From Candidatus Omnitrophota bacterium (GTDB taxonomy: Bacteria; Omnitrophota; Gorgyraeia; Gygaellales; UBA12090): a DNA stretch of 64,000 bases. This document shows positions 6,729-61,946 of the stretch, piece by piece; position 1 is the first letter of the stretch, and each line of letters starts with the position of its first letter. A model generated the notes under the pieces. The model saw nothing but the letters and a program-made list of their open reading frames with translations. It did not search any database and was not told where the DNA came from. The position numbers were made by a program, and so were the translations under genes. Location: assembly GCA_030674475.1 (NCBI GenBank), contig JAUSCZ010000012.1:319-64318 (forward strand). The letters are read 5' to 3'.

Positions 6729-7250
6729 ATGAGCTTAGTTCCAGTGGAAAGAATAGAGAGCAAGATTTTTTTGATTAGCGGCAAAAAGGTAATGTTGGAC
6801 AGGGATCTGGCAGAGCTTTATGGGGTAGAGACTAAGTATCTAAAGCGACAGGTGCGTAGAAATCTCAATAGATTCCCGCCCGATTTTATGTTTAAATTAT
6901 CAAAGCCGGAGTTTAAAAATTGGAGGTGCCAATTTGTTACCTCCAATTCTGCTGATAAAATGGGGTTGCGTTATCCGCCTTATGCCTTTAGTGAACCTGG
7001 AGTGGCTATGCTTTCTTCAGTTCTCAATAGCAACAGAGCTATTCATGTTAATATCCAGATTATCAGAACATTCATAAAATTACGACAGCTGCTTTTAACG
7101 CACGTAGAGCTTAAGCGAAAAATTGAGGATATGGAAGGGAAATACGACCAGCAGTTTAAGATTGTTTTTGAGGCGATAAGAAAGTTGTTGGAATCACCAA
7201 AGCCAGAACCGATGAAAAGGATAACGGGTTTTAGTACCAAAAGAGTTTGA
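6729..7250 (+). CDS. ORF6N-domain (KilA-N/antirepressor-like) DNA-binding protein
   Basis: 'IFLISGKKVMLDRDLAELYGVETKYLKRQVRRNLNRFPPDFMFKL' matches the ORF6N domain. Confidence 0.6.
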   Translation: MSLVPVERIESKIFLISGKKVMLDRDLAELYGVETKYLKRQVRRNLNRFPPDFMFKLSKPEFKNWRCQFVTSNSADKMGLRYPPYAFSEPGVAMLSSVLNSNRAIHVNIQIIRTFIKLRQLLLTHVELKRKIEDMEGKYDQQFKIVFEAIRKLLESPKPEPMKRITGFSTKRV

Positions 7251-7379
7251 GTTGGTCGCAAAATAGCTGTATTAAAACATTGAGGTCGGTATTATGTGGG
7301 CGTGTTTCCGGAAGATTTAGAGGAAACGGCAGAGATGCTGGCGCAGAAGCAACTTAATCTTTACAAGGAAAAACAACTT

Positions 7380-8594
7380 ATGAGAAAACATTTTTTGATC
7401 GTAAAAATCGCCTCTTTATTTATTATTTTTTTCTCATTTATGCGTTTTGCGGGAGCAGATACAATTTATTTGAAAAACGGCAAGAAATACAACTGCAGAA
7501 TAATTGATAAAACAGACAAATATATAAAAATAGATTTTTTAGGTGTGGTTTTGACCTATCAGATAGATGAGTTAGAACGAATTGAGTCTGCGAAAGAAGA
7601 GATTTCAGACTCAAAACAAGCTATGATAAAAAACCCTGTTTTTCAAAAAAATAGCATAGAAGCGAATTTTAAAAAAGGAACAGATTATTTAAAAGAGGGA
7701 AAATGGCAAGAGGCAGTAAAAGAATTTGAAAGAGTGATTTCTGTGGATACGTATCATGTTGGCGCGCATTTTAATTTGGGTTGTGCGTTTGCGTTGATGG
7801 AAGAGTATGAGAAGGCAAAAGAGGAATTTGAAAAAGTTTTGCCATTGGAAATGTTCCCTTTCAACGCCTTTTGTTATTTTAATATGGGGGGTCTTTATGC
7901 AAAAAAAGGAATTCTAAACAAAAGTTCAGGATATTTAAAAGAAGCGGCAGAATATTTTAAAAAAGCTGCTCAAGTGTTTCCGGGTTTTAACTTGGCAAGA
8001 GATTATGCCGCGCATTCGCAATTAATAATGGCTGTATTTGATACGGGCGGAGATATCGAACATATAGCGTTTAGCGTAGCAGAAACAGGAACTCCTCCAG
8101 ATTCAGCAATATTTCTATCAAAAGCTGATAGTATGGGAGACAAGGAAAATTTGGTATATCTTTTTGGTGCGGATAGCCCTCCGATGGTGTATTTCCATAG
8201 AAGTCCATCTTGTTATTACTTGACCTGTTCTTCAAAAATAGATGTTCAGAATCTTGCAAACATTGCTCAAGAAGAATTTACTTGTTTAGAAAATATAATA
8301 GATTTGGTAGAAAAAGAGGATAGATTTAACAAAATGATTAAGTGGAATTCATTTATAATATTATCTGCTTCTTATCGCGACAAAAATGATTTTAACAAAG
8401 CTGTTGAATTTGGAGAAAAAGCGATAGCGTTGGGCTTGCGCCTTTCTTCAGAATACATACATTTAGCAAACCTCTATTTTTACAAAAAAGATTATATAAA
8501 GGCTAAACAATTAGCAGAAGAGGCATTAAAGATTAATCCTGATAACACACAATTACGTAAAACAGCCGAGGAAATTATACAGGCAGTTTCTTAA
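7380..8594 (+). CDS. Membrane-anchored TPR-repeat protein
   Basis: N-terminal hydrophobic segment 'IVKIASLFIIFFSF', then TPR-like repeats (WQEAVKEFERVI..., YIKAKQLAEEALKINPDN). The start was chosen at the Met preceding the TM segment. Confidence 0.5.
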   Translation: MRKHFLIVKIASLFIIFFSFMRFAGADTIYLKNGKKYNCRIIDKTDKYIKIDFLGVVLTYQIDELERIESAKEEISDSKQAMIKNPVFQKNSIEANFKKGTDYLKEGKWQEAVKEFERVISVDTYHVGAHFNLGCAFALMEEYEKAKEEFEKVLPLEMFPFNAFCYFNMGGLYAKKGILNKSSGYLKEAAEYFKKAAQVFPGFNLARDYAAHSQLIMAVFDTGGDIEHIAFSVAETGTPPDSAIFLSKADSMGDKENLVYLFGADSPPMVYFHRSPSCYYLTCSSKIDVQNLANIAQEEFTCLENIIDLVEKEDRFNKMIKWNSFIILSASYRDKNDFNKAVEFGEKAIALGLRLSSEYIHLANLYFYKKDYIKAKQLAEEALKINPDNTQLRKTAEEIIQAVS

Positions 8595-8623: not shown

Positions 8624-8695
8624 GCGCCTGTGGCCCAACGGATAGGGCAGCAGCCTCCGAAGCTGCTGGTGCAGGTTCAATTCCTGCCAGGCGCA
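8624..8695 (+). tRNA. tRNA-Arg (anticodon CCG)
   Basis: Manual cloverleaf fold: acceptor GCGCCTG/CAGGCGC, anticodon loop CTCCGAA, T-arm GCAGG-TTCAATT-CCTGC. No CCA is encoded. Confidence 0.8.
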
Positions 8696-8708
8696 ATACT
8701 TATAAAAA

Positions 8709-8875
8709 GGAATTGAACAAAAGGGGAGTTTGAGGGGAAAAGGTGATTTTCACCTCAAGAATCGCTTCTTTGTTTACGCTGCGGGGTGACAGCGAACCGC
8801 CGTAGGCGGTGAGCGTCATTAGGGGCAGGAGGCCCATATGATAAGTTCAATTCCTGCCAGGCGCAGTAATACAGA
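8709..8875 (+). ncRNA. tRNA-linked structured element, copy 1 (T-arm complement ... conserved core ... duplicated tRNA-Arg 3' end)
   Basis: It begins GGAATTGAAC, the reverse complement of the tRNA-Arg T-loop region. A ~120-nt core is ~90% identical to 18091..18249. It ends with the 21-nt copy GTTCAATTCCTGCCAGGCGCA of the tRNA 3' end. Confidence 0.5.
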
Positions 8876-9011
8876 ACTAAGAGTTAAAAATTAAGAGCTA
8901 AGATCGGGCTTGGTAGCAGTTTTTGAAAAAAGTGGAGTGATTTACCCATATAATCGGTAAAATTAAGGTAAAAGTGGGGCTAACATTAGTTTTTTACGGT
9001 TTAGGGGAGCG

Positions 9012-17783: not shown

Positions 17784-17857
17784 GGGCGGTTAGTTCAGCT
17801 GGTTAGAATGCATGATTTACATTCATGAGGTCACAGGTTCAAGTCCTGTACCGCCCA
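17784..17857 (+). tRNA. tRNA-Val (anticodon TAC)
   Basis: Manual fold: acceptor GGGCGGT/ACCGCCC, anticodon loop TTTACAT, T-arm ACAGG-TTCAAGT-CCTGT. Confidence 0.8.
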
Positions 17858-17999
17858 TTAATACAGAACTAAGATTTAAGAATTAAAAAGGCTGAACTGG
17901 CAGAAAAAAAAAGAAAACATTGAAGTTATTAAAATTTTGAGTACAATAATAACATCTCTTTCGCAGTTCTTAGCTCTAAATTCTTAGTTCTGCTTTATT

Positions 18000-18075
18000 G
18001 GGGTCGTGGTGTAGCCTGGTTTAACACATCGCCCTGTCACGGCGAAGACCGCGGGTTCAAATCCCGTCGACCCCG
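18000..18075 (+). tRNA. tRNA-Asp (anticodon GTC)
   Basis: Manual fold: acceptor GGGGTCG/CGACCCC, anticodon loop CTGTCAC, T-arm GCGGG-TTCAAAT-CCCGT. Confidence 0.8.
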
Positions 18076-18090
18076 TTAAACCTAAATTAA

Positions 18091-18249
18091 GGGATTTGAA
18101 CAAAAGGGGAGTTTGGGGGGAAAAGGTGATTTTCCCCCCAAGAATCGCTTCTTTGTTTACGCCACGGGGTGACAGCGAACCGCCGCAGGCGGTGAGCGTC
18201 ATTAGGGGCAAGGAGCCCCTATGAAAAGTTCAAATCCCGTCGACCCCAC
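18091..18249 (+). ncRNA. tRNA-linked structured element, copy 2 (T-arm complement ... conserved core ... duplicated tRNA-Asp 3' end)
   Basis: It begins GGGATTTGAAC, the reverse complement of the tRNA-Asp T-loop. The core is ~90% identical to copy 1, with a compensatory change in the GGGGGG/CCCCCC hairpin. It ends GTTCAAATCCCGTCGACCCC, a copy of the tRNA-Asp 3' end. Confidence 0.5.
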
Positions 18250-18336
18250 TATAAACAACATAACCGCGAATTCTCTCGCGGTTTTTTGTTTTGATAAAAC
18301 ATGAAAATGGTGTATAATAATTAAAATAGGCTAAAT

Positions 18337-18996: not shown

Positions 18997-19177
18997 ATGG
19001 TCTTACGCCCTAATACACGGCGGTTTTTCAGAAATAGTGTATGGTGACCCCGCCTCGTAAGCTGAGGTAAAATTCTCTGCGACAATTTTACCTCACTCGG
19101 TGGGGTTAATTCGCACTTATAACTTACTCTCCGCCTACGGCGGATCGTAAGTTATGTGCTCATTAAGGAGGTGCAGT

Positions 19178-19258
19178 ATGGGTTGTGGAACCTGTGCCCC
19201 AAAAAAGAAAAAGTCAACGGCAAAGCCAAAGGCAAAAGCAAAGGCCAAGAAGAGATAG
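19178..19258 (+). CDS. Putative 26-aa Cys/Lys-rich peptide (MGCGTCAPKKKKSTAKPKAKAKAKKR)
   Basis: AGGAGG lies 7 nt upstream of the ATG, and a structured leader precedes it. The Lys-rich part is encoded by the AAAGTCAA-type motif seen elsewhere, so it may not be a genuine gene. Confidence 0.25.
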   Translation: MGCGTCAPKKKKSTAKPKAKAKAKKR

Positions 19259-19332
19259 CCGCTTTTTCTGGAATTTGTAAAAGAGATACCTGCATAATAA
19301 TGTGCAGGTATCTCTTTTAGTGGAGATAAAAT

Positions 19333-20052
19333 ATGCTGGAGATTGCTTTTAGAAGAGTTGAATCGGTCGCGGTTTTGGACTTGACCGGTAATATTAATAT
19401 AGATTCAGCCAATCTTATTGAGAAGATCGGCTGGTGTTTAGAAAACGGCTATCCGGACATCCTCTGCAATTTTGAAAACATCAATCTGGTGGATTACGCC
19501 GGATTGTCGGTGCTGGCGATTGCCTTTAAAAATGTGGAAAACCATAAAGGCAGGATAAAGCTGTCGGGTGTGGCCGGACATATTAAAAATATTTTCTCTT
19601 TGATGTGCTTAGACCGGATTGTTGAGATGTGCGATGAGGAAAAACAGGCGGTCAGCAGTTTTAAAGAAGACCAGATTATTTCTGAGATTAAAAAGAAGAA
19701 GTTAAGAAGAAGATTCCGGCGCCTGCCTTTAGATATTAAGGTGGAATTTAAAGCTAAGGATAAGAATGAGGAATTCAGCCGCGGGAAAGTGGCGAATCTC
19801 AGCGGGGTGGGCTTATTGGTTGTGGCTGATAAACTGTATCCGCTTAATGAAATGCTGGAGGTTAAGCTGCTACTCTCGCAGAAAACCGGGGTATTGGAAA
19901 TTCAGGCCAAGGTAGCCTGGTTGGTGCGGATGGAATTACAGCCGCAGTTTTATCCCGGGATGGGTTTGGAGTTTTATCAGCTTGAACCCAGCCTGCAGAA
20001 AAAGATTGTGGAGTTTGTGGAAAGGAATCTGCCTTCTGGTTGTAATATATAA
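19333..20052 (+). CDS. STAS-domain (anti-sigma-factor antagonist-like) - PilZ-domain fusion protein
   Basis: N-terminal STAS ('VLDLTGNIN...YAGLSVL'). C-terminal PilZ motifs 'RRFRRLPL' (RxxxR) and 'ANLSGVGLLV' (D/NxSxGG). Confidence 0.65.
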   Translation: MLEIAFRRVESVAVLDLTGNINIDSANLIEKIGWCLENGYPDILCNFENINLVDYAGLSVLAIAFKNVENHKGRIKLSGVAGHIKNIFSLMCLDRIVEMCDEEKQAVSSFKEDQIISEIKKKKLRRRFRRLPLDIKVEFKAKDKNEEFSRGKVANLSGVGLLVVADKLYPLNEMLEVKLLLSQKTGVLEIQAKVAWLVRMELQPQFYPGMGLEFYQLEPSLQKKIVEFVERNLPSGCNI

Positions 20053-27571: not shown

Positions 27572-28171
27572 ATGACACAAAGTATTTATAATAAAGTAGT
27601 TAGCATGATATACGGAATGAAGAGGGGTTGGGTATTTACTACAACTAATTTTCTTGATCTTGGAAGTCGCACGGCCGTGGCTAAAACCCTAGAGCGTTTA
27701 GCGGACTCCGGTACTATTCGCCGACTCGCGCGTGGCCTGTATGATTACCCGGAGAAACATCCTGTGTTGGGAGAGTTACCCGCGAATTATGAGCGCATCG
27801 CTCAAGCATTGGCAGGAAGGGATAGTTTGAAAATTCAACCTTCCGGGGCATATGCCGCTAATCTGCTTGGTTTAACCGAACAGGTGCCGGCAAGAATTGT
27901 TTTTTTGACAGATGGCTCCAATAGAAAAGTGCAGGTCAAAAATCAGCAGATCATTTTGAAAAGAACAACCCCCAAGAATATGGCAACCGCCGGGAATGTG
28001 AGCGGTTTGGTCATTCAGGCTTTGCGGTATTTAGGTAAAGATCACGTAGATGCTAAAACAGTAGGAATACTTAATAAGAGATTAACGGGAGATGATAAGC
28101 GCCAGCTTATGCGCGATCTTCGCTATGCCCCCGCGTGGATAGGATCAATATTTAGACAACTACAGAGATAA
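27572..28171 (+). CDS. abiEi: AbiEi-family type IV toxin-antitoxin antitoxin / transcriptional regulator
   Basis: 'TAVAKTLERLADSGTIRRLARGLYDY' matches the AbiEi N-terminal wHTH. Paired with a downstream AbiEii gene. Confidence 0.7.
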   Translation: MTQSIYNKVVSMIYGMKRGWVFTTTNFLDLGSRTAVAKTLERLADSGTIRRLARGLYDYPEKHPVLGELPANYERIAQALAGRDSLKIQPSGAYAANLLGLTEQVPARIVFLTDGSNRKVQVKNQQIILKRTTPKNMATAGNVSGLVIQALRYLGKDHVDAKTVGILNKRLTGDDKRQLMRDLRYAPAWIGSIFRQLQR

Positions 28172-28178
28172 GAAGATT

Positions 28179-29204
28179 ATGGATAAATTCGTATTGTTGA
28201 CGCGTAAAGATAAACGCGCGTACTTTGAAGTGGCCGCGGCTAACTTGAACATAATGCCGCAACTGATTGAAAAGGATTTTTGGGTATGCTGGATACTAAA
28301 AATTATTTTTTCATTACCGAAGGTCGGCGCGCATTTAACCTTTAAAGGGGGAACATCCCTCTCAAAATGTTATAACGTTATTAAACGCTTTTCGGAAGAT
28401 ATCGATATTTCAATAGAAAGGCCTTTTTTATCAAAGACCCATGCTATCGAACCGGATAAAGAAAAAAGCAATAAGGAAAATCAGAAAAGACTCAAGGAAT
28501 TGCAATTGGTTTGTAAAACAAAAATTGATGAAATGATCATCCCCAGCTTAAAACAATCAATCGCGGCAGTTCTTTCCGATACCGGGGAATGGAAAATTGA
28601 ACCGGATTCCGGGGATGAGGACGGACAAACTGTTTTATTTATCTTTCCTCATGCTATGACGAGTACCGCGGAAAGTTACGTAAGATCCTCAGTCAAAATT
28701 GAATTTGGCGCTCGATCTGATCATTGGCCGGTTGAAACCGCGACAATTGTCCCCTATGTCGCGAATGTTTCCGGGGAGCGGGTTATTGAAGGGGCTTCCG
28801 CGCGCGTTTTAGCCGCGGAACGGACTTTTTGGGAGAAAGCGACGATCCTGCATATGATATATCATTATCCGTCTGAAAAAAACATACCGCCGCGAATGTC
28901 GCGGCATTATTACGATATATACGCGATGGCAGATTCGCCCATATATAAAAAAGCATTAAAGAGTATTTCGTTGTTAAAACATGTATCTGACCATAAATCT
29001 CTATTTTTTAAAGCGAATTGGGCGCATTATGATACAGCCAAGTCGGGTACCTTGCGGTTAGTGCCTCGTGATAATCTGGTGAGCCAACTGAAAAATGATT
29101 ACCGTCAAATGCAGCAAATGTTTTTTGAAGAGCCTCCGTCATTTGAGCAAATTATAGAAAAACTCCGGGCCATAGAAGAACAGATTAATAGGATCTCCTT
29201 ATGA
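28179..29204 (+). CDS. abiEii: AbiEii/AbiGii-family nucleotidyltransferase toxin (DUF1814)
   Basis: 'FKGGTSLSKCY...SEDIDIS' NTase motif typical of AbiEii. Confidence 0.75.
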   Translation: MDKFVLLTRKDKRAYFEVAAANLNIMPQLIEKDFWVCWILKIIFSLPKVGAHLTFKGGTSLSKCYNVIKRFSEDIDISIERPFLSKTHAIEPDKEKSNKENQKRLKELQLVCKTKIDEMIIPSLKQSIAAVLSDTGEWKIEPDSGDEDGQTVLFIFPHAMTSTAESYVRSSVKIEFGARSDHWPVETATIVPYVANVSGERVIEGASARVLAAERTFWEKATILHMIYHYPSEKNIPPRMSRHYYDIYAMADSPIYKKALKSISLLKHVSDHKSLFFKANWAHYDTAKSGTLRLVPRDNLVSQLKNDYRQMQQMFFEEPPSFEQIIEKLRAIEEQINRISL

Positions 29205-29453: not shown

Positions 29454-29530
29454 ATTTTCCGATTGTTCGCCTGGGCAAGGATTTTTGCAAAAAGACTAAA
29501 CCAAGGTGTGAAATATGCCCGATAAAGTAA
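29452..29530 (+). pseudogene. Fragment homologous to the 3' end of the endonuclease III-like gene at 45146..45787
   Basis: It translates to '..PIVRLGKDFCKKTKPRCEICPIK*', versus 'ALIVRLGKDFCKKTNPKCEICPIK*' at 45723..45787. The helicase start codon (29515) lies inside it. Confidence 0.6.
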
Positions 29531-32500
29531 AGAAACAATCCGAAGTGCAAAACAAAGCAATCAGGCTTTTTACTTATCTCGAAAAAGCCCTTTCTCTCGA
29601 TGACACTATCGTGAGAGATTTTCGGTCTACTATCACTGCACCTTCTCCTTGGTGGCTGGCAGATTTACCTGATGATGTTGAAAATCTTCAAGTTAGGCAG
29701 TTTGAAACTAATCAGACTGGGGATGAGGAGAATGCGACTCAAGATGAGGTTTGGCTTCGTGTGGAGAAAAAGAGTATCAAATCTGCTCCGCCGATGCCGG
29801 ATGCTCTGAACGAATGGATTGATGAAGTGAATCCCATTGAGACCCCAAAAGCAAAGGAAAAAATTGACCGGAAGATAAAGTTTGATCAAGACGAAACTCG
29901 CGCTCGGGAATTCAAAAAATTCAGAAAAGAATTTGCTCAAGGAAACAAGCCGCCGAAACTTCTTGAGGAATGGGTTGTTTTGAGCCCAAATAAATTTCCC
30001 GAGGTTATAGAAGAAAGATATATTGAGGAATACTTTAACGATCACCCCGAACTCCAAAGTCTTCTTAATGACTACATTGAGAACGAATGGAAGCCGTGGG
30101 CGCAAAAAGTGGTAAAAATCTACAAGGCAAATTTGCTTTATGACCAACTCTATGCCTTACGCTTTCTTTTGAAAAACGAGGGGGATAGTTATGAGTTGTT
30201 ATGGGGACACGGTTTACTCACATGGAAGCACGGTGGCATAGGGACAATTTATGCACCGATCTTTTTAACTCCTTTAACGCTGGGTTTTGACGCTTCAAAG
30301 AGAGTAATTGAGATTTATCCCGATCCAATGTTTCGGGGTTTTGCGGAAATTTCATCCCTGTACGAAATGGATAATCCCGCAGAAATGGACTTGATAACAT
30401 GGTCGGACAAAATCAATTCAAATCCATTCAACTTTTGGCATTTTGAAACACTCAAAACGCAGACGCGGTTTATGATAAACACACTCTCAACCTCAAGTGA
30501 AGACTATTTTGACGAAAAACTTGTTTCTGCTCCCAATTCTACCGTAACGCCGAGTATTTGGAACGCGCCAGTGATATTTGCGCGGAAACGGACAAATGAC
30601 CTTTGGTCAAAATACGCGGGTATTATTCGGCGCGATATCGAGCAGAACAACATAGAACCGACAGAGTTTATTGCCGATCTTGTTGGCAACTATCAAGAGA
30701 CGGAGCAAATAGAAAGCGAGAATGGCGGCGAAAAAGAAGGCGAAACGATACTAAAAGAATCAGAATTGTTTTTCCCGTTGCCATGGAATGATGAGCAAAA
30801 AAGAATCGCGGAACGGCTTGATGCGCATTATGGGGTCGTAGTAAAAGGTCCGCCGGGCACCGGAAAAACTCACACTATCGCCAATCTTATTTCTCGCTTT
30901 CTGTCACAAGGAAAGACTGTTTTGGTTACATCACAAACGAGTAAGGCATTGGAAGTTTTAAGAGATAAATTACCAGAAAATATTCGAAGCCTTGCCGTCT
31001 CGCAACTCCATCAAACCGCGAGACAGGACGATGTATTACAACAATCAATTACTGAGATTAGCTCTAACCTGGGAGAGCGGCATACAAAATTCAGCGAGCA
31101 AAAAGCGGAAATTAAAAGAAAGGAACTTCAGGGCGTCAGGGAAGAGAGAGCACCTCTCGCAAATCAAATAAGGAAGTACATTCTTACGGACTCAAGCGTA
31201 AAAATTGAAATAGACGGAGAGGAAATCAATCCTATTGACGCGGCGAAGTTGGTTAGCAGGTACAAAGATGATCCAACGCTTGAATGGTTTACGGATAAAA
31301 TTCACTTTGAGACAAAACTCAATTTCAAAGACGAAGATTTAGAAGAAATCTACATGTTACTTACAGAACTTAATTCCGAAGAGCGGCAACTACATAAATT
31401 TGAGTTACCAATGACCTTCAGTCTACCAAGCGAAGATGCGGCAACGGGAGTTTTTTCCTCATACCGAGATCTAAGTGATAGGGTGAAAACATCAAATAAA
31501 GTTTTTGGCGACTCCAATCCAAACCTCCAGCAGGAGAAACTCACAACCCTATGGGAACAACTATCAAGCGCTAAAAAGGTTTTATTTTCCATAAACAAGG
31601 ATTATGAAAAAGAGATTTTTGGATTGTGTATAGTCAGCCAAAGCGAGCGAGAAAAATGGCGCGTCGTCCTTTCAAAAATTGGCGAGAAAATCTATTTGAT
31701 CGGCAAAAGTAGTACAAGCATTCTCGGCCACGAAATTATCGGTAACCAAAACATCCCGCTCACTGATCTTTTGGAGGCAATATCTGTTCTGAAGGAAAAG
31801 GCGAGAGGTAGAACAAAGATAGGGACTTTTGCGAAGTTGCTTTTGTCGTCTCATGGGAAAAAGGTTTTGGAGAGCTACAAAGTAGACGGCCGCGTTCCCG
31901 AAGATGCAGAACGCTTGGAAATTCTGCACCAAAGCGTTCTTATCAAGCAAGCACAGAAAGAAATTAAAACTTTATTGGGACAAAGTTTTTCTCACCTGAA
32001 GTCGCCTTTTGATTCGCAGGATCAAGAGGTTGATGTGGTACAACTTGAGGTATTGATCTCAAGTCTTGAAAGGATAATCAATTACTACGAAAACTTTGTT
32101 ACCATAGACAAATTTTGCAAAGCAATAAGACAACTTTCCGATTTTGCGTTTACTAAAATCGAGGATATCGAAAAACTTACTGAAATCATTTCGTCCCATG
32201 TAGCGAAATTTGAGATCGTGAATTTAGAAACTTTATTGTCCGGCTGGACTCAATCAATTGAGACATCTATAAACGGCGAAAGACACTCAATCATAGAAAA
32301 ATTACTATCGGCGATAAACAAACGGAATACAACCGCATGGAGAAACGCCCTTGATGAACTCGGGTTGCTTCTTGATAAAAAGCAAAGGGCGATCCGCTTG
32401 AATGAATTATCTCAAAAAGTTAAAGAACTCTCTCCGAATCTCTATCAGGATATTGGTGGACTTGCCGATCAGAAAAAAAAGCTTTTGTGCCCTAAAAATC

Positions 32501-34113
32501 TCGGTCTTGCATGGAAAATAGCGCGACTCGAATCGTGGCTCGATCATATCCATAATCATATTGATATTGATAGTTTGCAAAATCAATTAGAGCGGCTAAC
32601 CAAAAAAGAATATCAACTGAATTCCGATCTCGTAACTATTCTCGCTTGGCAGAGACAGATTGATAAGGTTACGAAAAAACAACGTGATGCGCTGATGGCG
32701 TGGTCGCACGAGATGAAAAAGTATGGAAAGGGTACCGGCAAGTGGGCGATTACGCATCTCCGTGCGGCACAAGAGGCATTGAAAGAGGCGAAAAATGCCG
32801 TGCCTGTTTGGATTATGCCGCTCCATCGTGCCGCTCAAATGTTTTCGGATCCGAAGGCGGGAATGTTCGATATTGTTATTTTTGACGAAGCGAGCCAGTG
32901 CGATATACGAGGAATTACAATAGGATATCTCGGTAAAAAACTTCTCGTTGTCGGCGACCCAGAACAGATTAGCCCCGCCGGTATATTCCAAGATCAAGAG
33001 AAAATATTTGAACTCATTTCTCGATTTCTGTTTGATATTCCTTTCAAAGAAAGTTTCTCAATAACATCGAGCTTGTTTGATCTCGCAAAAATAAGATTAT
33101 CCAATATAATTCAGTTAAACGAACATTTTAGGTGCGTGCCGGAAATCATCGCATTCAGCAATCACCATATATACGAAGGAAAACTTAAACCTCTACGGTA
33201 TCCTCACCCTAAAGGATTATTGAAGCCCGCACTTGTTCCGATTTTTATAGAAACGGGCTATCAAAATACAAACAACAAAGTCAACGTGCCAGAAGCAGAA
33301 GCGATTGTTGAAAAGTTAGTTGAATGCCTAAATGACCCAAATTATCAAAAACGCCCGGATAATGTAGGTAGCCACATATGTACATTCGGGATCGTGTCTC
33401 TGCTTGCCGAAGATCAAGCGAAATATATCAAAGAGTTAATTTTAAGACGTATTGACGAGAGAACAATAGAGGAAAGGCGTATTGTTTGTGGAGATGCGTA
33501 TGCGTTTCAAGGAGATGAAAGGGATGTGATGTTTCTTTCTGTGGTGAAAGCACTCGATTCAAATGATCCGGAAGATGTAGTTAGATCTCTGACGGACGAG
33601 GGTACGAAACGAAGGTTTAACGTTGCCGCGTCTCGTGCCCGCGATCAGATGTTTTTATTTCATTCAATCCCCCTTGAAGAATTTAGAAACCCTAACGATT
33701 GGAGATATAAACTTCTCAACTGGTTTTACAATCCAAGGACCGAGGAATTGAATGCTGGGCGAGATGCCCTAAAGCGAGAGTTTAATTCTGGCAGGGCATC
33801 GCAGTTCTCTTTTGATGTTGGAAATATCCTGATCGATCGTGGCTATCAGGTTTTGCCGGAATATCCAGTCATTGGGTATCGAATTGACCTTGTTGTGCAG
33901 GGTGCAGAGGCTCGTCTTGCTGTGGAGTGCGATGGAGATCAATATCATACACTAGAAAATTGGGAAGAGGATCAAGTGCGAGAGAGACAGCTGAGAAGGG
34001 CTGGATGGGAATTTTGGAGAGTTACCGGAAGTGCGTTTTATCGAAACAAAGAAAAAGCTCTCGAAAGTTTATGGAAGAAACTAAACGAATTAGGCGTTAA
34101 ACCGATTATTTAA
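29515..34113 (+). CDS. 1532-aa SF1 (Upf1/DNA2-like) helicase with a DUF4011-like N-terminal region and a C-terminal Vsr/DUF559-type PD-(D/E)xK nuclease domain
   Basis: Walker A 'GPPGTGKTHTIANL', Walker B 'VIFDEASQ', 'VVGDPEQISP', 'CGDAYAFQGDERDVMFLSVV' and 'RRFNVAASRARDQMFLF' motifs. C-term 'YRIDLVVQGAEARLAVECDGDQYHTLENWEEDQVRERQLRRAGWEFWRV' matches DUF559. Confidence 0.8.
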   Translation: MPDKVKKQSEVQNKAIRLFTYLEKALSLDDTIVRDFRSTITAPSPWWLADLPDDVENLQVRQFETNQTGDEENATQDEVWLRVEKKSIKSAPPMPDALNEWIDEVNPIETPKAKEKIDRKIKFDQDETRAREFKKFRKEFAQGNKPPKLLEEWVVLSPNKFPEVIEERYIEEYFNDHPELQSLLNDYIENEWKPWAQKVVKIYKANLLYDQLYALRFLLKNEGDSYELLWGHGLLTWKHGGIGTIYAPIFLTPLTLGFDASKRVIEIYPDPMFRGFAEISSLYEMDNPAEMDLITWSDKINSNPFNFWHFETLKTQTRFMINTLSTSSEDYFDEKLVSAPNSTVTPSIWNAPVIFARKRTNDLWSKYAGIIRRDIEQNNIEPTEFIADLVGNYQETEQIESENGGEKEGETILKESELFFPLPWNDEQKRIAERLDAHYGVVVKGPPGTGKTHTIANLISRFLSQGKTVLVTSQTSKALEVLRDKLPENIRSLAVSQLHQTARQDDVLQQSITEISSNLGERHTKFSEQKAEIKRKELQGVREERAPLANQIRKYILTDSSVKIEIDGEEINPIDAAKLVSRYKDDPTLEWFTDKIHFETKLNFKDEDLEEIYMLLTELNSEERQLHKFELPMTFSLPSEDAATGVFSSYRDLSDRVKTSNKVFGDSNPNLQQEKLTTLWEQLSSAKKVLFSINKDYEKEIFGLCIVSQSEREKWRVVLSKIGEKIYLIGKSSTSILGHEIIGNQNIPLTDLLEAISVLKEKARGRTKIGTFAKLLLSSHGKKVLESYKVDGRVPEDAERLEILHQSVLIKQAQKEIKTLLGQSFSHLKSPFDSQDQEVDVVQLEVLISSLERIINYYENFVTIDKFCKAIRQLSDFAFTKIEDIEKLTEIISSHVAKFEIVNLETLLSGWTQSIETSINGERHSIIEKLLSAINKRNTTAWRNALDELGLLLDKKQRAIRLNELSQKVKELSPNLYQDIGGLADQKKKLLCPKNLGLAWKIARLESWLDHIHNHIDIDSLQNQLERLTKKEYQLNSDLVTILAWQRQIDKVTKKQRDALMAWSHEMKKYGKGTGKWAITHLRAAQEALKEAKNAVPVWIMPLHRAAQMFSDPKAGMFDIVIFDEASQCDIRGITIGYLGKKLLVVGDPEQISPAGIFQDQEKIFELISRFLFDIPFKESFSITSSLFDLAKIRLSNIIQLNEHFRCVPEIIAFSNHHIYEGKLKPLRYPHPKGLLKPALVPIFIETGYQNTNNKVNVPEAEAIVEKLVECLNDPNYQKRPDNVGSHICTFGIVSLLAEDQAKYIKELILRRIDERTIEERRIVCGDAYAFQGDERDVMFLSVVKALDSNDPEDVVRSLTDEGTKRRFNVAASRARDQMFLFHSIPLEEFRNPNDWRYKLLNWFYNPRTEELNAGRDALKREFNSGRASQFSFDVGNILIDRGYQVLPEYPVIGYRIDLVVQGAEARLAVECDGDQYHTLENWEEDQVRERQLRRAGWEFWRVTGSAFYRNKEKALESLWKKLNELGVKPII

Positions 34114-36642: not shown

Positions 36643-37295
36643 GGTGTTTTATTTATATCTAGACGAAAGCGGTGATTTGGGGGTTTGATTTTGTTACTAA
36701 GAAACCCTCAAAATTCTTCACTATCATGGTGCTCGTGCTGAAAGGACAGGATAAGAACCGCGCGCTTATTAATGCGGTAAAGCATACATTAAGGCGCAAG
36801 TTAGGGAAAAGGAAGCTGTTCAAGAGCATTGGCTGCGAATTAAAGGCAAGCAGGGTGTCTATTGAAATTAAAAAGTATTTCTACGACCAGGTCAAGGGGT
36901 TGGATTTCAAATTGTATACGTTGACTCTCAACAAGAAAAGGGTGTATCAAAGCTTAATGCAAGAAAAGGAGAGAATTTATAATTACCTCGCCCGCTTAGT
37001 GTTGGATAAGATAAGTTTTGATAATGCTGAAGTCAGGGTTACGCTGATAGTGGACAAAAGCAAGGGTAAGCCTGAAATTTCCGAATTCAATTCATATATC
37101 TTTAGGCAGATTCAGGCAAAAATTGATCCCAAGATACCATTAGATATTGAGCATGCGTTATCGCATGAGAACTTGGGTTTGCAAGCAGTGGATATGTTTA
37201 CTTGGGGGATATTCAGAAAATATGAGAGGAAAGACTTTGGGTGGTTCAGGGTATTTGAGAGCAAGATGGCTTACGATGATGTTTATCTACCATAA
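36643..37295 (+). pseudogene. DUF3800-family gene with a +/-1 frameshift in a G5 tract
   Basis: GTG-initiated 'VFYLYLDESGDLGV*' (the N-terminal DUF3800 DESGD motif) stops at 36686. The rest continues in another frame as 'GFDFVTKKPSKFFTIMVLVLKG...GLQAVDMFTWGIFR'. A single-base change in GGGGG would fuse them. Confidence 0.6.
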
Positions 37296-37626
37296 AATAA
37301 AAATGAGCGCGCCTTACAGGTTCGTTAAGTTTAGGCTTTTGCCCACCATACGGAGGGGAACACCTAAACAACCCGTAACGGTCTTACCGCTCACTTATAA
37401 GTATACCCTATGAGAAGGTTTTGTCAAGATGAAAATTTGGATAAATAGTCGTTTCTGTGCAAAACGACGGGAAAACGACGGGGTCAGACCCGGACAGTAG
37501 ACATTAATTGGTAAAAGATTAATCGAATGACTATAATCGCGTTATGTCCAACTATGGGATAGTAGAAACATATTGACAATGTAACTACATTGTAGTATTA
37601 TTGTAATAGAATAAGAAAATGAACCA

Positions 37627-60720: not shown

Positions 60721-60819
60721 GGCGGGAAAAAAAGGCAAACCATCCGTAAGGATGGGGCGCAAAGCTTCCGGTCCTAGAACGAATGAAGTGAATCGTAGGA
60801 TAGCGGAGCCGCCAAGGGG
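60721..60819 (+). promoter_or_regulatory. c-di-GMP-I (GEMM) riboswitch aptamer
   Basis: 'GGCAAACCAUCCGUAAGGAUGGGGCGCAAAGCUUCCGGUCCUAGAAC...UAGGAUAGCGGAGCCGCC' is near-identical in its conserved blocks to the Vibrio Vc2 aptamer ('GGCAAACCAUUCGAAAGAGUGGGACGCAAAGCCUCCGGCCUAAACC...UAGGUAGCGGGG'). P1 closes by GGCGG/CCGCC. Confidence 0.75.
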
Positions 60820-60959: not shown

Positions 60960-61946
60960 ATGAAAAACATAACCAATATTTTACTGATTTTGCTGGTAGT
61001 TCTGGTATTAGGATTTAGCGTTATAGTTATCTTAAATATCTTTACTCCCCCTCCCCCCAAACCGCAAATTTCGGCAGTCAGCCAACCAATAGAAGAGACT
61101 GCTATCCCAGAATCAGAAACAACAGCCCAGCCCAAAACCGAAACCCCAGAGGCATTACCTATTTCCGCGCCGCAACCCAAAGCTGAGGCTCCGCAAGCGG
61201 ATTTAGCCAAGCCCACAGAAGACCAAGCGCTTAAAGTTAAAATAGACTCCTTAATTGCTAAGATTAATTCTAATAATGCGGAGGAATCCTTAAAGGCCGA
61301 AGATGAGCTGGTCGAGTTGGGTAAGCCCGCGCTTAAGGAATTAGTCAACGTCTTAAATAATCTTGAGCCTTCAGAAGACATCTTGCGCCCGGAGATAGCC
61401 TTTATTTTAGGCAGGTTTGAGGATGCAGAGGCAGTTTCGGCATTGACACCTCTATTAGAGAATGAGAACTCCTATATCCGCAGAAATGCCATTAATTCTC
61501 TGAAAAGAATAAGAAGCCAGGAGGCAGTGTTTTCATTGACAGCGAGACTTTCCGATAAAGACGACTTAGTTCGAGAATCAGCCGTATCCGCCCTGGGAGA
61601 GATTAGCGGTTACGAAGCAACCGAGGACCTGATTAACCGGCTCAAGGATGAGAATGAAACTGAAGGGATAAAACTGGCGGCGGTGAAGGCCTTGGGTCAG
61701 ATTAAGGATGCCCGGGCTGTCAATGAGCTATCGGAACAGTTAAAAAACGAGTCCGATCCATTCTATAAAGATGAGGTAGTAGATTCTTTAGCTAATATAG
61801 GGGAGATGCGGGCGGTTTCAGGACTAAATGAATATCTTGACCAGCTTAAAAATAATAAACCAGAAAATGCCGGGGATTTATTCTTCTGGCAGAACAGCGT
61901 AGAGATAACTGAACAAGCTATCCAAAGATTGACCAGCGGCTCTTAA
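60960..61946 (+). CDS. Membrane-anchored HEAT-repeat (PBS-lyase HEAT-like) protein
   Basis: N-terminal TM, Pro/Glu-rich linker, then repeated 'EDILRPEIAFILGRFEDAEAVSALTPLLENENSYIRRNAINSL'-type HEAT units. Confidence 0.6.
   Translation: MKNITNILLILLVVLVLGFSVIVILNIFTPPPPKPQISAVSQPIEETAIPESETTAQPKTETPEALPISAPQPKAEAPQADLAKPTEDQALKVKIDSLIAKINSNNAEESLKAEDELVELGKPALKELVNVLNNLEPSEDILRPEIAFILGRFEDAEAVSALTPLLENENSYIRRNAINSLKRIRSQEAVFSLTARLSDKDDLVRESAVSALGEISGYEATEDLINRLKDENETEGIKLAAVKALGQIKDARAVNELSEQLKNESDPFYKDEVVDSLANIGEMRAVSGLNEYLDQLKNNKPENAGDLFFWQNSVEITEQAIQRLTSGS

Follow-up and report, generated by a model that had tools for sequence, protein, structure and literature searches.

An undescribed, very rare, RNA-structured insert in the tRNA trailers of some Omnitrophota

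Why should two of the three tRNA genes on one stretch of bacterial DNA be followed by nearly the same segment of about 170 bp, each time closed off by a second copy of the 3' end of its own tRNA? This question is raised by a 64,000-nucleotide stretch of DNA from a Candidatus Omnitrophota bacterium (assembly GCA_030674475.1, contig JAUSCZ010000012.1, positions 319 to 64,318; hereafter the window), and in particular by the segment at 18091-18249, which lies behind a tRNA-Asp gene. A preliminary description of this DNA took it for the second copy of a tRNA-linked structured element that was either mobile, with target-derived ends, or a duplicated functional RNA co-evolving with its host tRNA. Our analysis indicates that this element is an insert, RNA-structured, very rare and so far undescribed, that some Omnitrophota carry in their tRNA trailers, and that both of these alternatives are supported in part and may both be true.

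The host of this copy (copy 2) is an intact tRNA-Asp(GUC) at 17999-18076 on the forward strand, as are all parts of both copies. It was detected by ARAGORN, scores 66.7 bits with the Rfam tRNA model and has the same sequence as the tRNA-Asp of two relatives (L005 and L006; such numbers denote the loci compared here). Positions 53-72 of the functional tRNA (18055-18074) constitute direct repeat 1, which spans the T-loop, the 3' strand of the T-stem and the 3' strand of the acceptor stem. From the tRNA 3' end runs an AT-rich linker of 14-15 nt (18077-18090; TAAACCTAAATTAA, after G73 and a T), followed by an 11-nt inverted segment, GGGATTTGAAC (18091-18101), which is the exact reverse complement of 18055-18065 (tRNA-Asp positions 53-63) and, in a repeat search, 100% complementary to both copies of the repeat. 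A structured core of 126 nt (18102-18227) leads to direct repeat 2, GTTCAAATCCCGTCGACCCC (18228-18247), an exact 20-nt copy of direct repeat 1. The first part of this repeat (18228-18238) forms the 3' strand of a predicted closing helix, P1, whose 5' strand is the inverted segment, and the rest (18239-18247) is a single-stranded copy of the acceptor 3' strand; at position 73 the tRNA has G and repeat 2 has A. Beyond the insert, a terminator scan located an intrinsic terminator at 18262-18289 (hairpin 18262-18283 plus a T run). The three features that the preliminary description had named, a 5' segment complementary to the tRNA-Asp T-loop, a 3' segment copying the tRNA-Asp 3' end and a terminator downstream, are thus all present, the first exact over 11 nt and the second over 20 nt.

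The architecture is common to copy 1 (8696-8865), as had also been proposed. This copy follows an intact tRNA-Arg(CCG) at 8624-8695 (ARAGORN, Rfam) that has the same sequence at ten related loci, and consists of a linker (8696-8707), the inverted segment AGGAATTGAAC (8708-8718), a core (8719-8844) and a direct repeat 2 of 21 nt (8845-8865) that matches tRNA-Arg positions 53-73 (8675-8695). Both cores are exactly 126 nt long, and their identity, earlier put at about 90%, is 92.1% (117 of 127 aligned columns); core words of 19 and 23 nt occur at only these two places in the window, with 0.00 expected from shuffles. The one remaining tRNA that ARAGORN and Rfam found in the window, tRNA-Val(UAC), lies at 17784-17857.

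It is the ends of the two copies that are most informative. Between cores that are 92% identical, the acceptor-strand parts of the repeats are wholly unlike (GTCGACCCC versus TGCCAGGCGC), which argues that the repeat was copied from each target. As read from these two copies, neither point mutation nor a fixed attachment site can explain the difference, and a target-copied repeat would rule out a fixed attachment site and hence the ordinary integrase model. The 5' segment presents a milder case. Because the T-loops of the two tRNAs differ by only 1-2 bases (GTTCAAATCCC in Asp, GTTCAATTCCT in Arg), re-matching this segment from Asp to Arg needs only 1-2 substitutions; the two anti-T-loop segments differ at two positions, one of which is a clean A-U to U-A compensation, while the second may be chance within the A-rich linker. 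Of the earlier proposal that the termini are re-matched to the host tRNA, the copying of the 3' repeat from its target holds and the 5' re-matching is modest: on these alignments, only the 3' repeat is necessarily copied from the target, and the 5' segment is an almost constant anti-T-loop sequence. In both window copies the repeat starts at G53, which is the start of the GTTCAA common to all T-loops and the point where element-specific sequence ends, and every copy that we have found has the orientation of the neighboring tRNA.

That the element is an insertion is indicated by the syntenic pyrimidine-operon loci of relatives, which were reached through carA orthologues (carA identity 79-93%) and yielded empty sites and no new copies. 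An identical tRNA-Arg without the insert is found in L005/6/7, L008, L012, L036, L039 and L040/41; an identical tRNA-Asp without it is found in L005/6, and a near-identical tRNA-Asp, also empty, in L009 and L036. At the Asp locus the flank 3' of repeat 2 is 86% identical to the tRNA-Asp trailer of L005, native terminator included, and at the Arg locus it is 70-77% identical to the Arg trailers of relatives; the flank 3' of repeat 1 is 44-50% identical to native trailers, which is background (44% for Asp). Since in L005 the same hairpin stands directly 3' of tRNA-Asp, the terminator at 18262-18289 is evidently native to the tRNA-Val/tRNA-Asp unit and now lies 3' of the insert. The empty sites at both tRNAs, together with the native trailer 3' of repeat 2, indicate an insertion bounded by a duplication of the tRNA from T-loop to 3' end, and agree with the earlier view of the element as a discrete unit with target-derived ends. 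By comparison with the relatives, the order at the locus is tRNA, insert, duplicated tRNA 3' end and native flank. A junction without insert would have the form ...GTCGACCCCG/A+CTATAAACAAC, and that of a circle or tandem the form ...CCCCTATGAAAAGTTCAAATCCCGTCGACCCCGTTAAACCTAAATTAAGGGATTTGAAC. An independent Logan contig of the same strain (L004) reproduces the junction of tRNA-Arg and element at 100% identity and stops at element position 74; breaks of short-read assemblies within the element are what a repeat would be expected to cause. The strain is also the one in sample SRR13727527, and a complete relative (ERZ1286166 contig_28) is free of the element. We also considered a direct repeat reaching into the trailer, and rejected it, as the possible extensions (ATAC, TAAAC) can be aligned only with indels and lack significance.

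Few other members of this family could be found. A third close copy, with a core identity of 87-89% (87% to copy 2), is present in an unrelated European Nucleotide Archive (ENA) assembly (L043) and was recovered by using the antisense pseudo-open reading frame of the element as a protein query; among 5.8 billion protein clusters, this frame has exactly one further copy, that of L043, and an exhaustive HMMER pass over 1.8 billion representatives found none beyond it. Its ends are Asp-type (AGGATTTGAAC ... GTTCAAATCCC--CGACCCCG, with a 2-nt deletion) and are followed by 16 nt of Asp trailer, and no tRNA lies within 376 nt upstream. Just upstream of this copy (L043 565-190, minus strand) there is also a very strongly folded, G+C-rich sequence of ~230 nt, with a minimum free energy (MFE) of about -148 kcal/mol over 375 nt. 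It matches no Rfam family, resembles nothing in the window or at the other loci, and could represent a further structured RNA or mobile element.

Two further members, which turned up in profile searches of the fetched loci, flank the same tRNA-Arg in Omnitrophica WOR_2 GWF2_43_52 (L009, also L010, L011 and L031), a lineage with a carA identity of only 82%. Immediately 3' of this tRNA, a decayed Arg-type copy (L009 9362-9420) keeps the anti-T-loop GGAATTG and the block GCTTCTTT..TGCGGGGT, and shares a TG variant and a similar linker with copy 1. The other, at L009 9054-9262 and hereafter L009up, is intact and divergent (~60% identity). It adjoins the tRNA-Arg, ending 27 nt upstream of it, its ends are unrelated to that tRNA, and no direct repeats above shuffles flank it; the 5' arm of its closing stem (L009 9062-9072) resembles AAACCTAAA of the copy 2 linker. 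Terminal matching to the adjacent tRNA, on which the preliminary description laid weight, is accordingly a property of both window copies that is not shared by L043, with its Asp-type ends and no tRNA upstream, or by L009up. Across the available data the host tRNA species number two, Arg-CCG and Asp-GUC.

Broader searches underline how rare the element is. Gathering and permissive scans of the window, L009 and L043 against Rfam 15 gave no match for any of the three element types, the best chance scores on the element being 13-24 bits against gathering scores of 34-117. A metagenome pattern scan with GGTGACAGCGAA..TGAGCGTCAT returned only three chance matches within coding regions. A scan of species-representative genomes with GCTTCTTTNTNTNCGNNNCGGGGT returned 18 loci, which is chance level, with the GWF2_43_52 remnant as the only real one; the window's own genome evidently lies outside that collection. 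No copy was detected in two viral-contig scans or by blastn against phages and plasmids, none beyond those described by a covariance model of the core run over 237 kb of Omnitrophota DNA, and full-text searches of the literature found no description of such an element.

Sparse as the family is, its members have a fold in common. All copies fold far better than shuffled controls (z-scores of -4.5 to -7.4; -7.35 for the core of copy 2). In copy 2 the core contains the predicted hairpins P2 (18113-18141; UUGGGGGG / CCCCCCAA, loop AAAAGGUGAUUUU), P4 (18175-18197; GC GA ACCGCC GCA GGCGGU GA GC), in which tandem G.A/A.G steps stand beside a G+C stem, and P5 (18199-18224; UCAU.AGGGGC / GCCCCUAUGA). 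Over the 26 pairs of P2, P4 and P5 in four sequences, 92% of the cells are paired, against 42-59% when the partners are slid by 1-3 columns. Double changes occur in 5 of the 26 pairs, and the observed values were reached by 2-13 of 500 shuffles, a count that is to be read with the four-sequence sample in mind. In P2, compensatory A-U/G-C changes are found at columns 26-48 and 29-45, with a G-U in L009up. The P4 pair 90-104 is seen as A-U, U-A and C-G across copies; the window type has one tandem G.A/A.G step and L009up has two, and an invariant GGGUGACA lies just 5' of this hairpin. The outer pair of P5 changes from U-A to C-G in L009up, where the inner stem is wholly different yet paired. Across the aligned copies the predicted helices P2, P4 and P5 thus keep pairing through compensatory changes, as in structured functional RNA.

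The P5 loop of both window copies (8827-8840 and 18210-18223) also carries AGGAG(G) 5 nt before an ATG, which opens frames of 17 and 27 codons through the duplicated tRNA end. This short frame is probably not a feature of the family: neither L043 (AGAGAG) nor L009up retains the AGGAG motif, and outside the residues encoded by the T-loop the peptides bear no relation to one another. Pairing of the tail GGGGUGAC with the core segment GUCGACCCC was likewise set aside, as it is possible for the Asp copy only.

The closing helix P1 deserves separate mention. It is found in every intact copy, and in each MFE and centroid fold of the element, and its sequence is free, with three different versions among the copies: it is a T-loop duplex in copy 1, copy 2 and L043 and an unrelated 18-bp stem in L009up, where its score was reached by 5 of 500 shuffles. 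Because L009up closes the same core with an unrelated stem, the 5' segment in our view pairs with the 3' segment of the element itself and not with the host tRNA T-arm; on this comparison the likeliest role of the 5' segment is that of one half of P1. In the predicted MFE fold of the full precursor, the T-loop of the tRNA itself is the partner of the 5' segment, and repeat 2 is that of the acceptor 5' strand; the pairings of UCAU in the predicted folds are mutually exclusive. The antisense strand folds almost as well as the sense strand. Folding energy was therefore rejected as a means of telling the strands apart, and we chose the sense strand from a few G-U pairs and from the fact that all copies are oriented like the tRNAs.

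How, then, might such a unit be expressed and come to stand behind different tRNAs? The insert lies between tRNA-Asp and its native terminator, and no promoter-like site was found inside it, which makes the earlier suggestion that it is transcribed with the tRNA-Val/tRNA-Asp unit plausible. We consider that there is about an even chance that the element is a non-autonomous, non-coding insertion module of ~170 bp, RNA-structured and mobilized in trans, that targets tRNA 3' ends and duplicates its target. In the mechanism that we infer from the arrangement of the copies, the element would be a passenger transcript of the tRNA operon, and tRNA 3' processing would release its 5' end. The 11-nt anti-T-loop segment would then pair with the T-loop part of the downstream repeat to form P1, which would keep the duplicate of the tRNA 3' half out of competition with the authentic 3' end during folding. 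New copies could arise, through an enzyme acting in trans, by an event anchored in GTTCAA, which the 3' junction of the element shares with every T-loop; candidate events are a ~21-bp staggered cut with fill-in, a template switch or recombination in the T-loop, and priming on a nicked T-loop. An event anchored in this way would account for the constant start of the repeat at G53 and for its acceptor sequence, which is always that of the local tRNA. Once the element had reached a new tRNA, P1 would be restored by 1-2 compensatory substitutions in the anti-T-loop segment. Three observations suggest more than a single accident, namely that two of the three tRNAs in a 64-kb window are occupied, that an assembly breaks inside the element, and that L043 has it in a different context. 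Such occupancy would be unlikely if the genome, taken to be ~2.1 Mb from the relative L006, held just two copies.

Several points weigh against this proposal. No recombinase, transposase, casposase or reverse transcriptase was found among the scanned open reading frames (ORFs) of the window, which were those of at least 120 aa, with the syntenic pyrimidine-biosynthesis operon set apart and annotated solely via orthologues. With only two host tRNA species, the data would also be compatible with one ancient duplication, subsequent vertical descent and loss through the repeats. The TG variant and linker that the decayed Arg-type copy shares with copy 1 across the 82%-carA lineage suggest that the Arg insertion is old and not recent, and L043 has Asp-type ends behind no tRNA. 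The antisense strand folds nearly as well, as described above, the covariation analysis comprises four sequences only, and expression of the element is a prediction.

The most serious competing explanation is the one just alluded to. The element could be a host-beneficial small RNA of tRNA operons that was copied in one duplicative accident, such as a replication template switch in the GTTCAA of two T-loops, and has since been inherited vertically under selection on its fold; the empty sites of relatives would then be precise losses by recombination between the 20-21 bp repeats. We regard this as possible, if somewhat unlikely. Besides the restriction to two host tRNAs and the apparent antiquity of the Arg-linked copy, it draws support from compensatory changes in P1, P2, P4 and P5 and from the existence of a divergent member in a tRNA leader without tRNA-derived ends. 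The core identity between the paralogues also exceeds that of the neutral trailers of close relatives (92% versus 70-86%), which suggests that the core is under selection and fits purifying selection. Against it, at least five or six independent precise losses would be needed at tRNA-Arg among close relatives, occupation of two of three tRNAs in one window is not expected of a genome with two copies, and L043 places the unit in a different context. Such extreme rarity in public data (one match in 5.8 billion protein clusters) would also be unusual for a useful conserved RNA. An origin in misassembly or a chance repeat is, by comparison, negligibly probable: the break of a short-read assembly inside the element (L004, position 74) is the only point related to it, and such an origin is contradicted by the junction in the independent Logan assembly, by the third copy in an unrelated ENA assembly and by the shared core words, for which shuffles give an expectation of 0.00.

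Mobilization by known kinds of enzyme fares less well. P4-like tyrosine integrases reportedly recombine in the T-loop of tRNA genes, and the element might be a miniature integrative element mobilized in trans by such an enzyme, with the repeats as attL and attR and the inverted segment as a recombinase-binding repeat. The tRNA-Arg locus does look like a hot spot for islands, with a restriction-modification island in L008 and L013 and ORF6N and TPR genes in the window. We nevertheless consider this quite unlikely, given that an element of the Campbell type must carry the 3' half of its target tRNA beforehand and a fixed attP leaves Arg- and Asp-specific halves on 92%-identical cores unexplained, that no integrase was found in the scanned ORFs of the 64-kb window, and that no symmetry with the T-stem is seen in the bases to the left of the crossover of the presumed attR (..TATGAAAAG). 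More doubtful still is a SINE-like retroelement (after the short interspersed nuclear elements), in which the GUUCAA of a read-through RNA anneals to the nicked bottom strand of a T-loop, the RNA is reverse-transcribed to the 5' end left by tRNA 3' processing, and a second nick at the tRNA end yields the ~21-bp duplication. The unit does start exactly where a tRNA ends and has no promoter of its own, each new copy is again placed behind a tRNA promoter, the repeat varies between 20 and 21 nt, the GTTCAA microhomology is there, the 16 nt of Asp trailer in the tRNA-less context of L043 would resemble a 3' transduction, and the conserved fold could act as a protein-binding scaffold. All this support is circumstantial, no reverse transcriptase was found in the scanned ORFs of the window, and the 3' stretch amounts to GAAAA/GATAA with no A-tail beyond it; to our knowledge, no such non-autonomous retroelement is known in bacteria. 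A broader version, which we also think quite improbable, is a bacterial SINE-like or RNA-guided mobile RNA, made from the host tRNA promoter and freed by tRNA 3' processing, whose T-loop and anti-T-loop segments would pair with both strands of T-loop DNA and which would be copied behind a new tRNA with a 21-bp duplication; if this were true, each new copy would come to lie behind a strong promoter with the tRNA unharmed.

Comparison with described systems helps to define what is particular about the insert. As in islands of P4-like tyrosine integrases, the direct repeat reproduces the tRNA from its T-loop to its 3' end, the tRNA itself remains whole, and beyond the distal repeat the native flank resumes. 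Unlike islands that target tRNAs, the element measures ~170 bp, has no integrase and contains a folded, RNA-like module, and its near-identical copies have different tRNA-specific repeats that appear to be copied from the target and not brought along as attP. Small size, lack of coding capacity, multiple copies, inverted sequences near the ends and presence/absence polymorphism are traits of miniature inverted-repeat transposable elements (MITEs). In contrast to MITEs, the inverted arms vary from copy to copy (those of L009up being unrelated), the 20-21 bp repeat contains the right arm, no short duplication lies outside the arms, and the helices covary as in structured RNA. The Cas1-type casposase of A. 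boonei, from the family 2 casposons, reads the T-loop motif TCAAATC and duplicates 14-15 bp of its target at the tRNA 3' end, starting 8 bp past the motif (PMC6614799). Target-site duplication on integration at a tRNA 3' end is shared with our element, whose duplication, however, is 20-21 bp and starts within the T-loop, at G53. Casposons are many kb long and have conserved terminal inverted repeats, which the element lacks; its host is bacterial and not archaeal, and no casposase was found in the scanned ORFs of the window.

Other parallels concern RNA. Small RNAs are produced from tRNA precursors in the case of the E. coli 3'ETS-leuZ spacer RNA and of plant tRNA-snoRNA units, and like these the element would be a non-tRNA RNA that has its promoter, terminator and processing enzymes in common with a tRNA unit. 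Those RNAs are neither insertions bounded by a tRNA duplication nor multi-copy, and we found no similarity to them in sequence or structure. The bridge RNA of IS110 and the TnpB RNA, whose 3' guide copies the flank, resemble it as structured scaffolds with segments matching the adjacent DNA, one per strand; here, however, the two segments share one target flank and are complementary to each other, and Rfam has no matching family. The neighbors are tRNA and carA or CBM_11 genes, and an IS110 recombinase or TnpB gene was found neither beside the element nor in the scanned ORFs of the 64-kb window. The attC sites of integrons have RYYYAAC ... GTTRRRY core sites that close a single imperfect hairpin of 57-141 nt. 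An attC site was rejected for the element, in which TTTGAAC / GTTCAAA are each off at two positions and the fold is multi-branched with three internal hairpins.

Some further features were noted at the two tRNA loci. The surroundings of tRNA-Arg(CCG) vary: ORF6N and TPR genes lie upstream in the window (6729-8594), an EcoRV-type restriction-modification island lies 3' of the tRNA in L008 (2672-5419) and L013 (544-3294), and an LDcluster4 gene lies nearby in L009 (9509-9979) and L039, so that the site appears to be an integration hot spot. In L012 (1730-1789), a 10-nt copy of the tRNA-Arg 5' end (GCGCCTGTGG) stands 50 nt upstream of the tRNA and looks like the footprint of another event, on the 5' side of tRNA-Arg. 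Between tRNA-Val and tRNA-Asp (17854-18002), the window retains only the 3' part of a PF05635 '23S_rRNA_IVP' gene, flanked on both sides by 36-nt inverted repeats (17854-17889 / 17967-18002). L005 has the complete gene at the same spot (19164-19529), similar cassettes lie 3' of carA in L005, L009 and L012, and all of these look like small cassettes bounded by long stems in operon spacers. The trailers of tRNA-Arg and tRNA-Val share AATACAGAACTAAGAKTTAA.AATTAA (window 8866-8905 and 17858-17889; L005 9898-9935), which also serves as the left arm in the long inverted repeats that surround the IVP cassettes.

Elsewhere in the window, a DUF3800-V RNA motif (RF02964, 76.5 bits; 37300-37398, minus strand) lies immediately after a DUF3800 gene (36672-37295), and a c-di-GMP-I-GGC (cyclic di-GMP) riboswitch aptamer (RF03167, 59.7 bits against a gathering score of 59; 60725-60817, plus strand) lies upstream of a HEAT-repeat ORF (60960-61946). 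Defense-like genes at 1621-2124, 27572-29204 and 29515-34113 comprise two AbiEii-type nucleotidyltransferase toxins, one with a DUF6088/AbiEi-like partner, and a 1532-aa helicase with a C-terminal MTES_1575 restriction-endonuclease-like domain.

Genes for tRNAs are the classic landing sites of large integrating elements, whose own tRNA-derived repeat ties them to one tRNA. That a protein-less, RNA-structured unit of 170 bp has this footprint at two tRNAs, its repeat taken in each case from the target, points to a targeting of the universally conserved T-loop that is free of a single tRNA. In either case, mobile or old host RNA, the element accounts for the breaks that assemblies of these genomes show behind tRNAs. 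As an old host RNA it would be a new example of a non-tRNA product from tRNA precursors; if it is active, it would represent a new conserved RNA fold with tandem G.A motifs and, in a phylum of which little is known, a minimal parasite or passenger RNA of tRNA transcription units.

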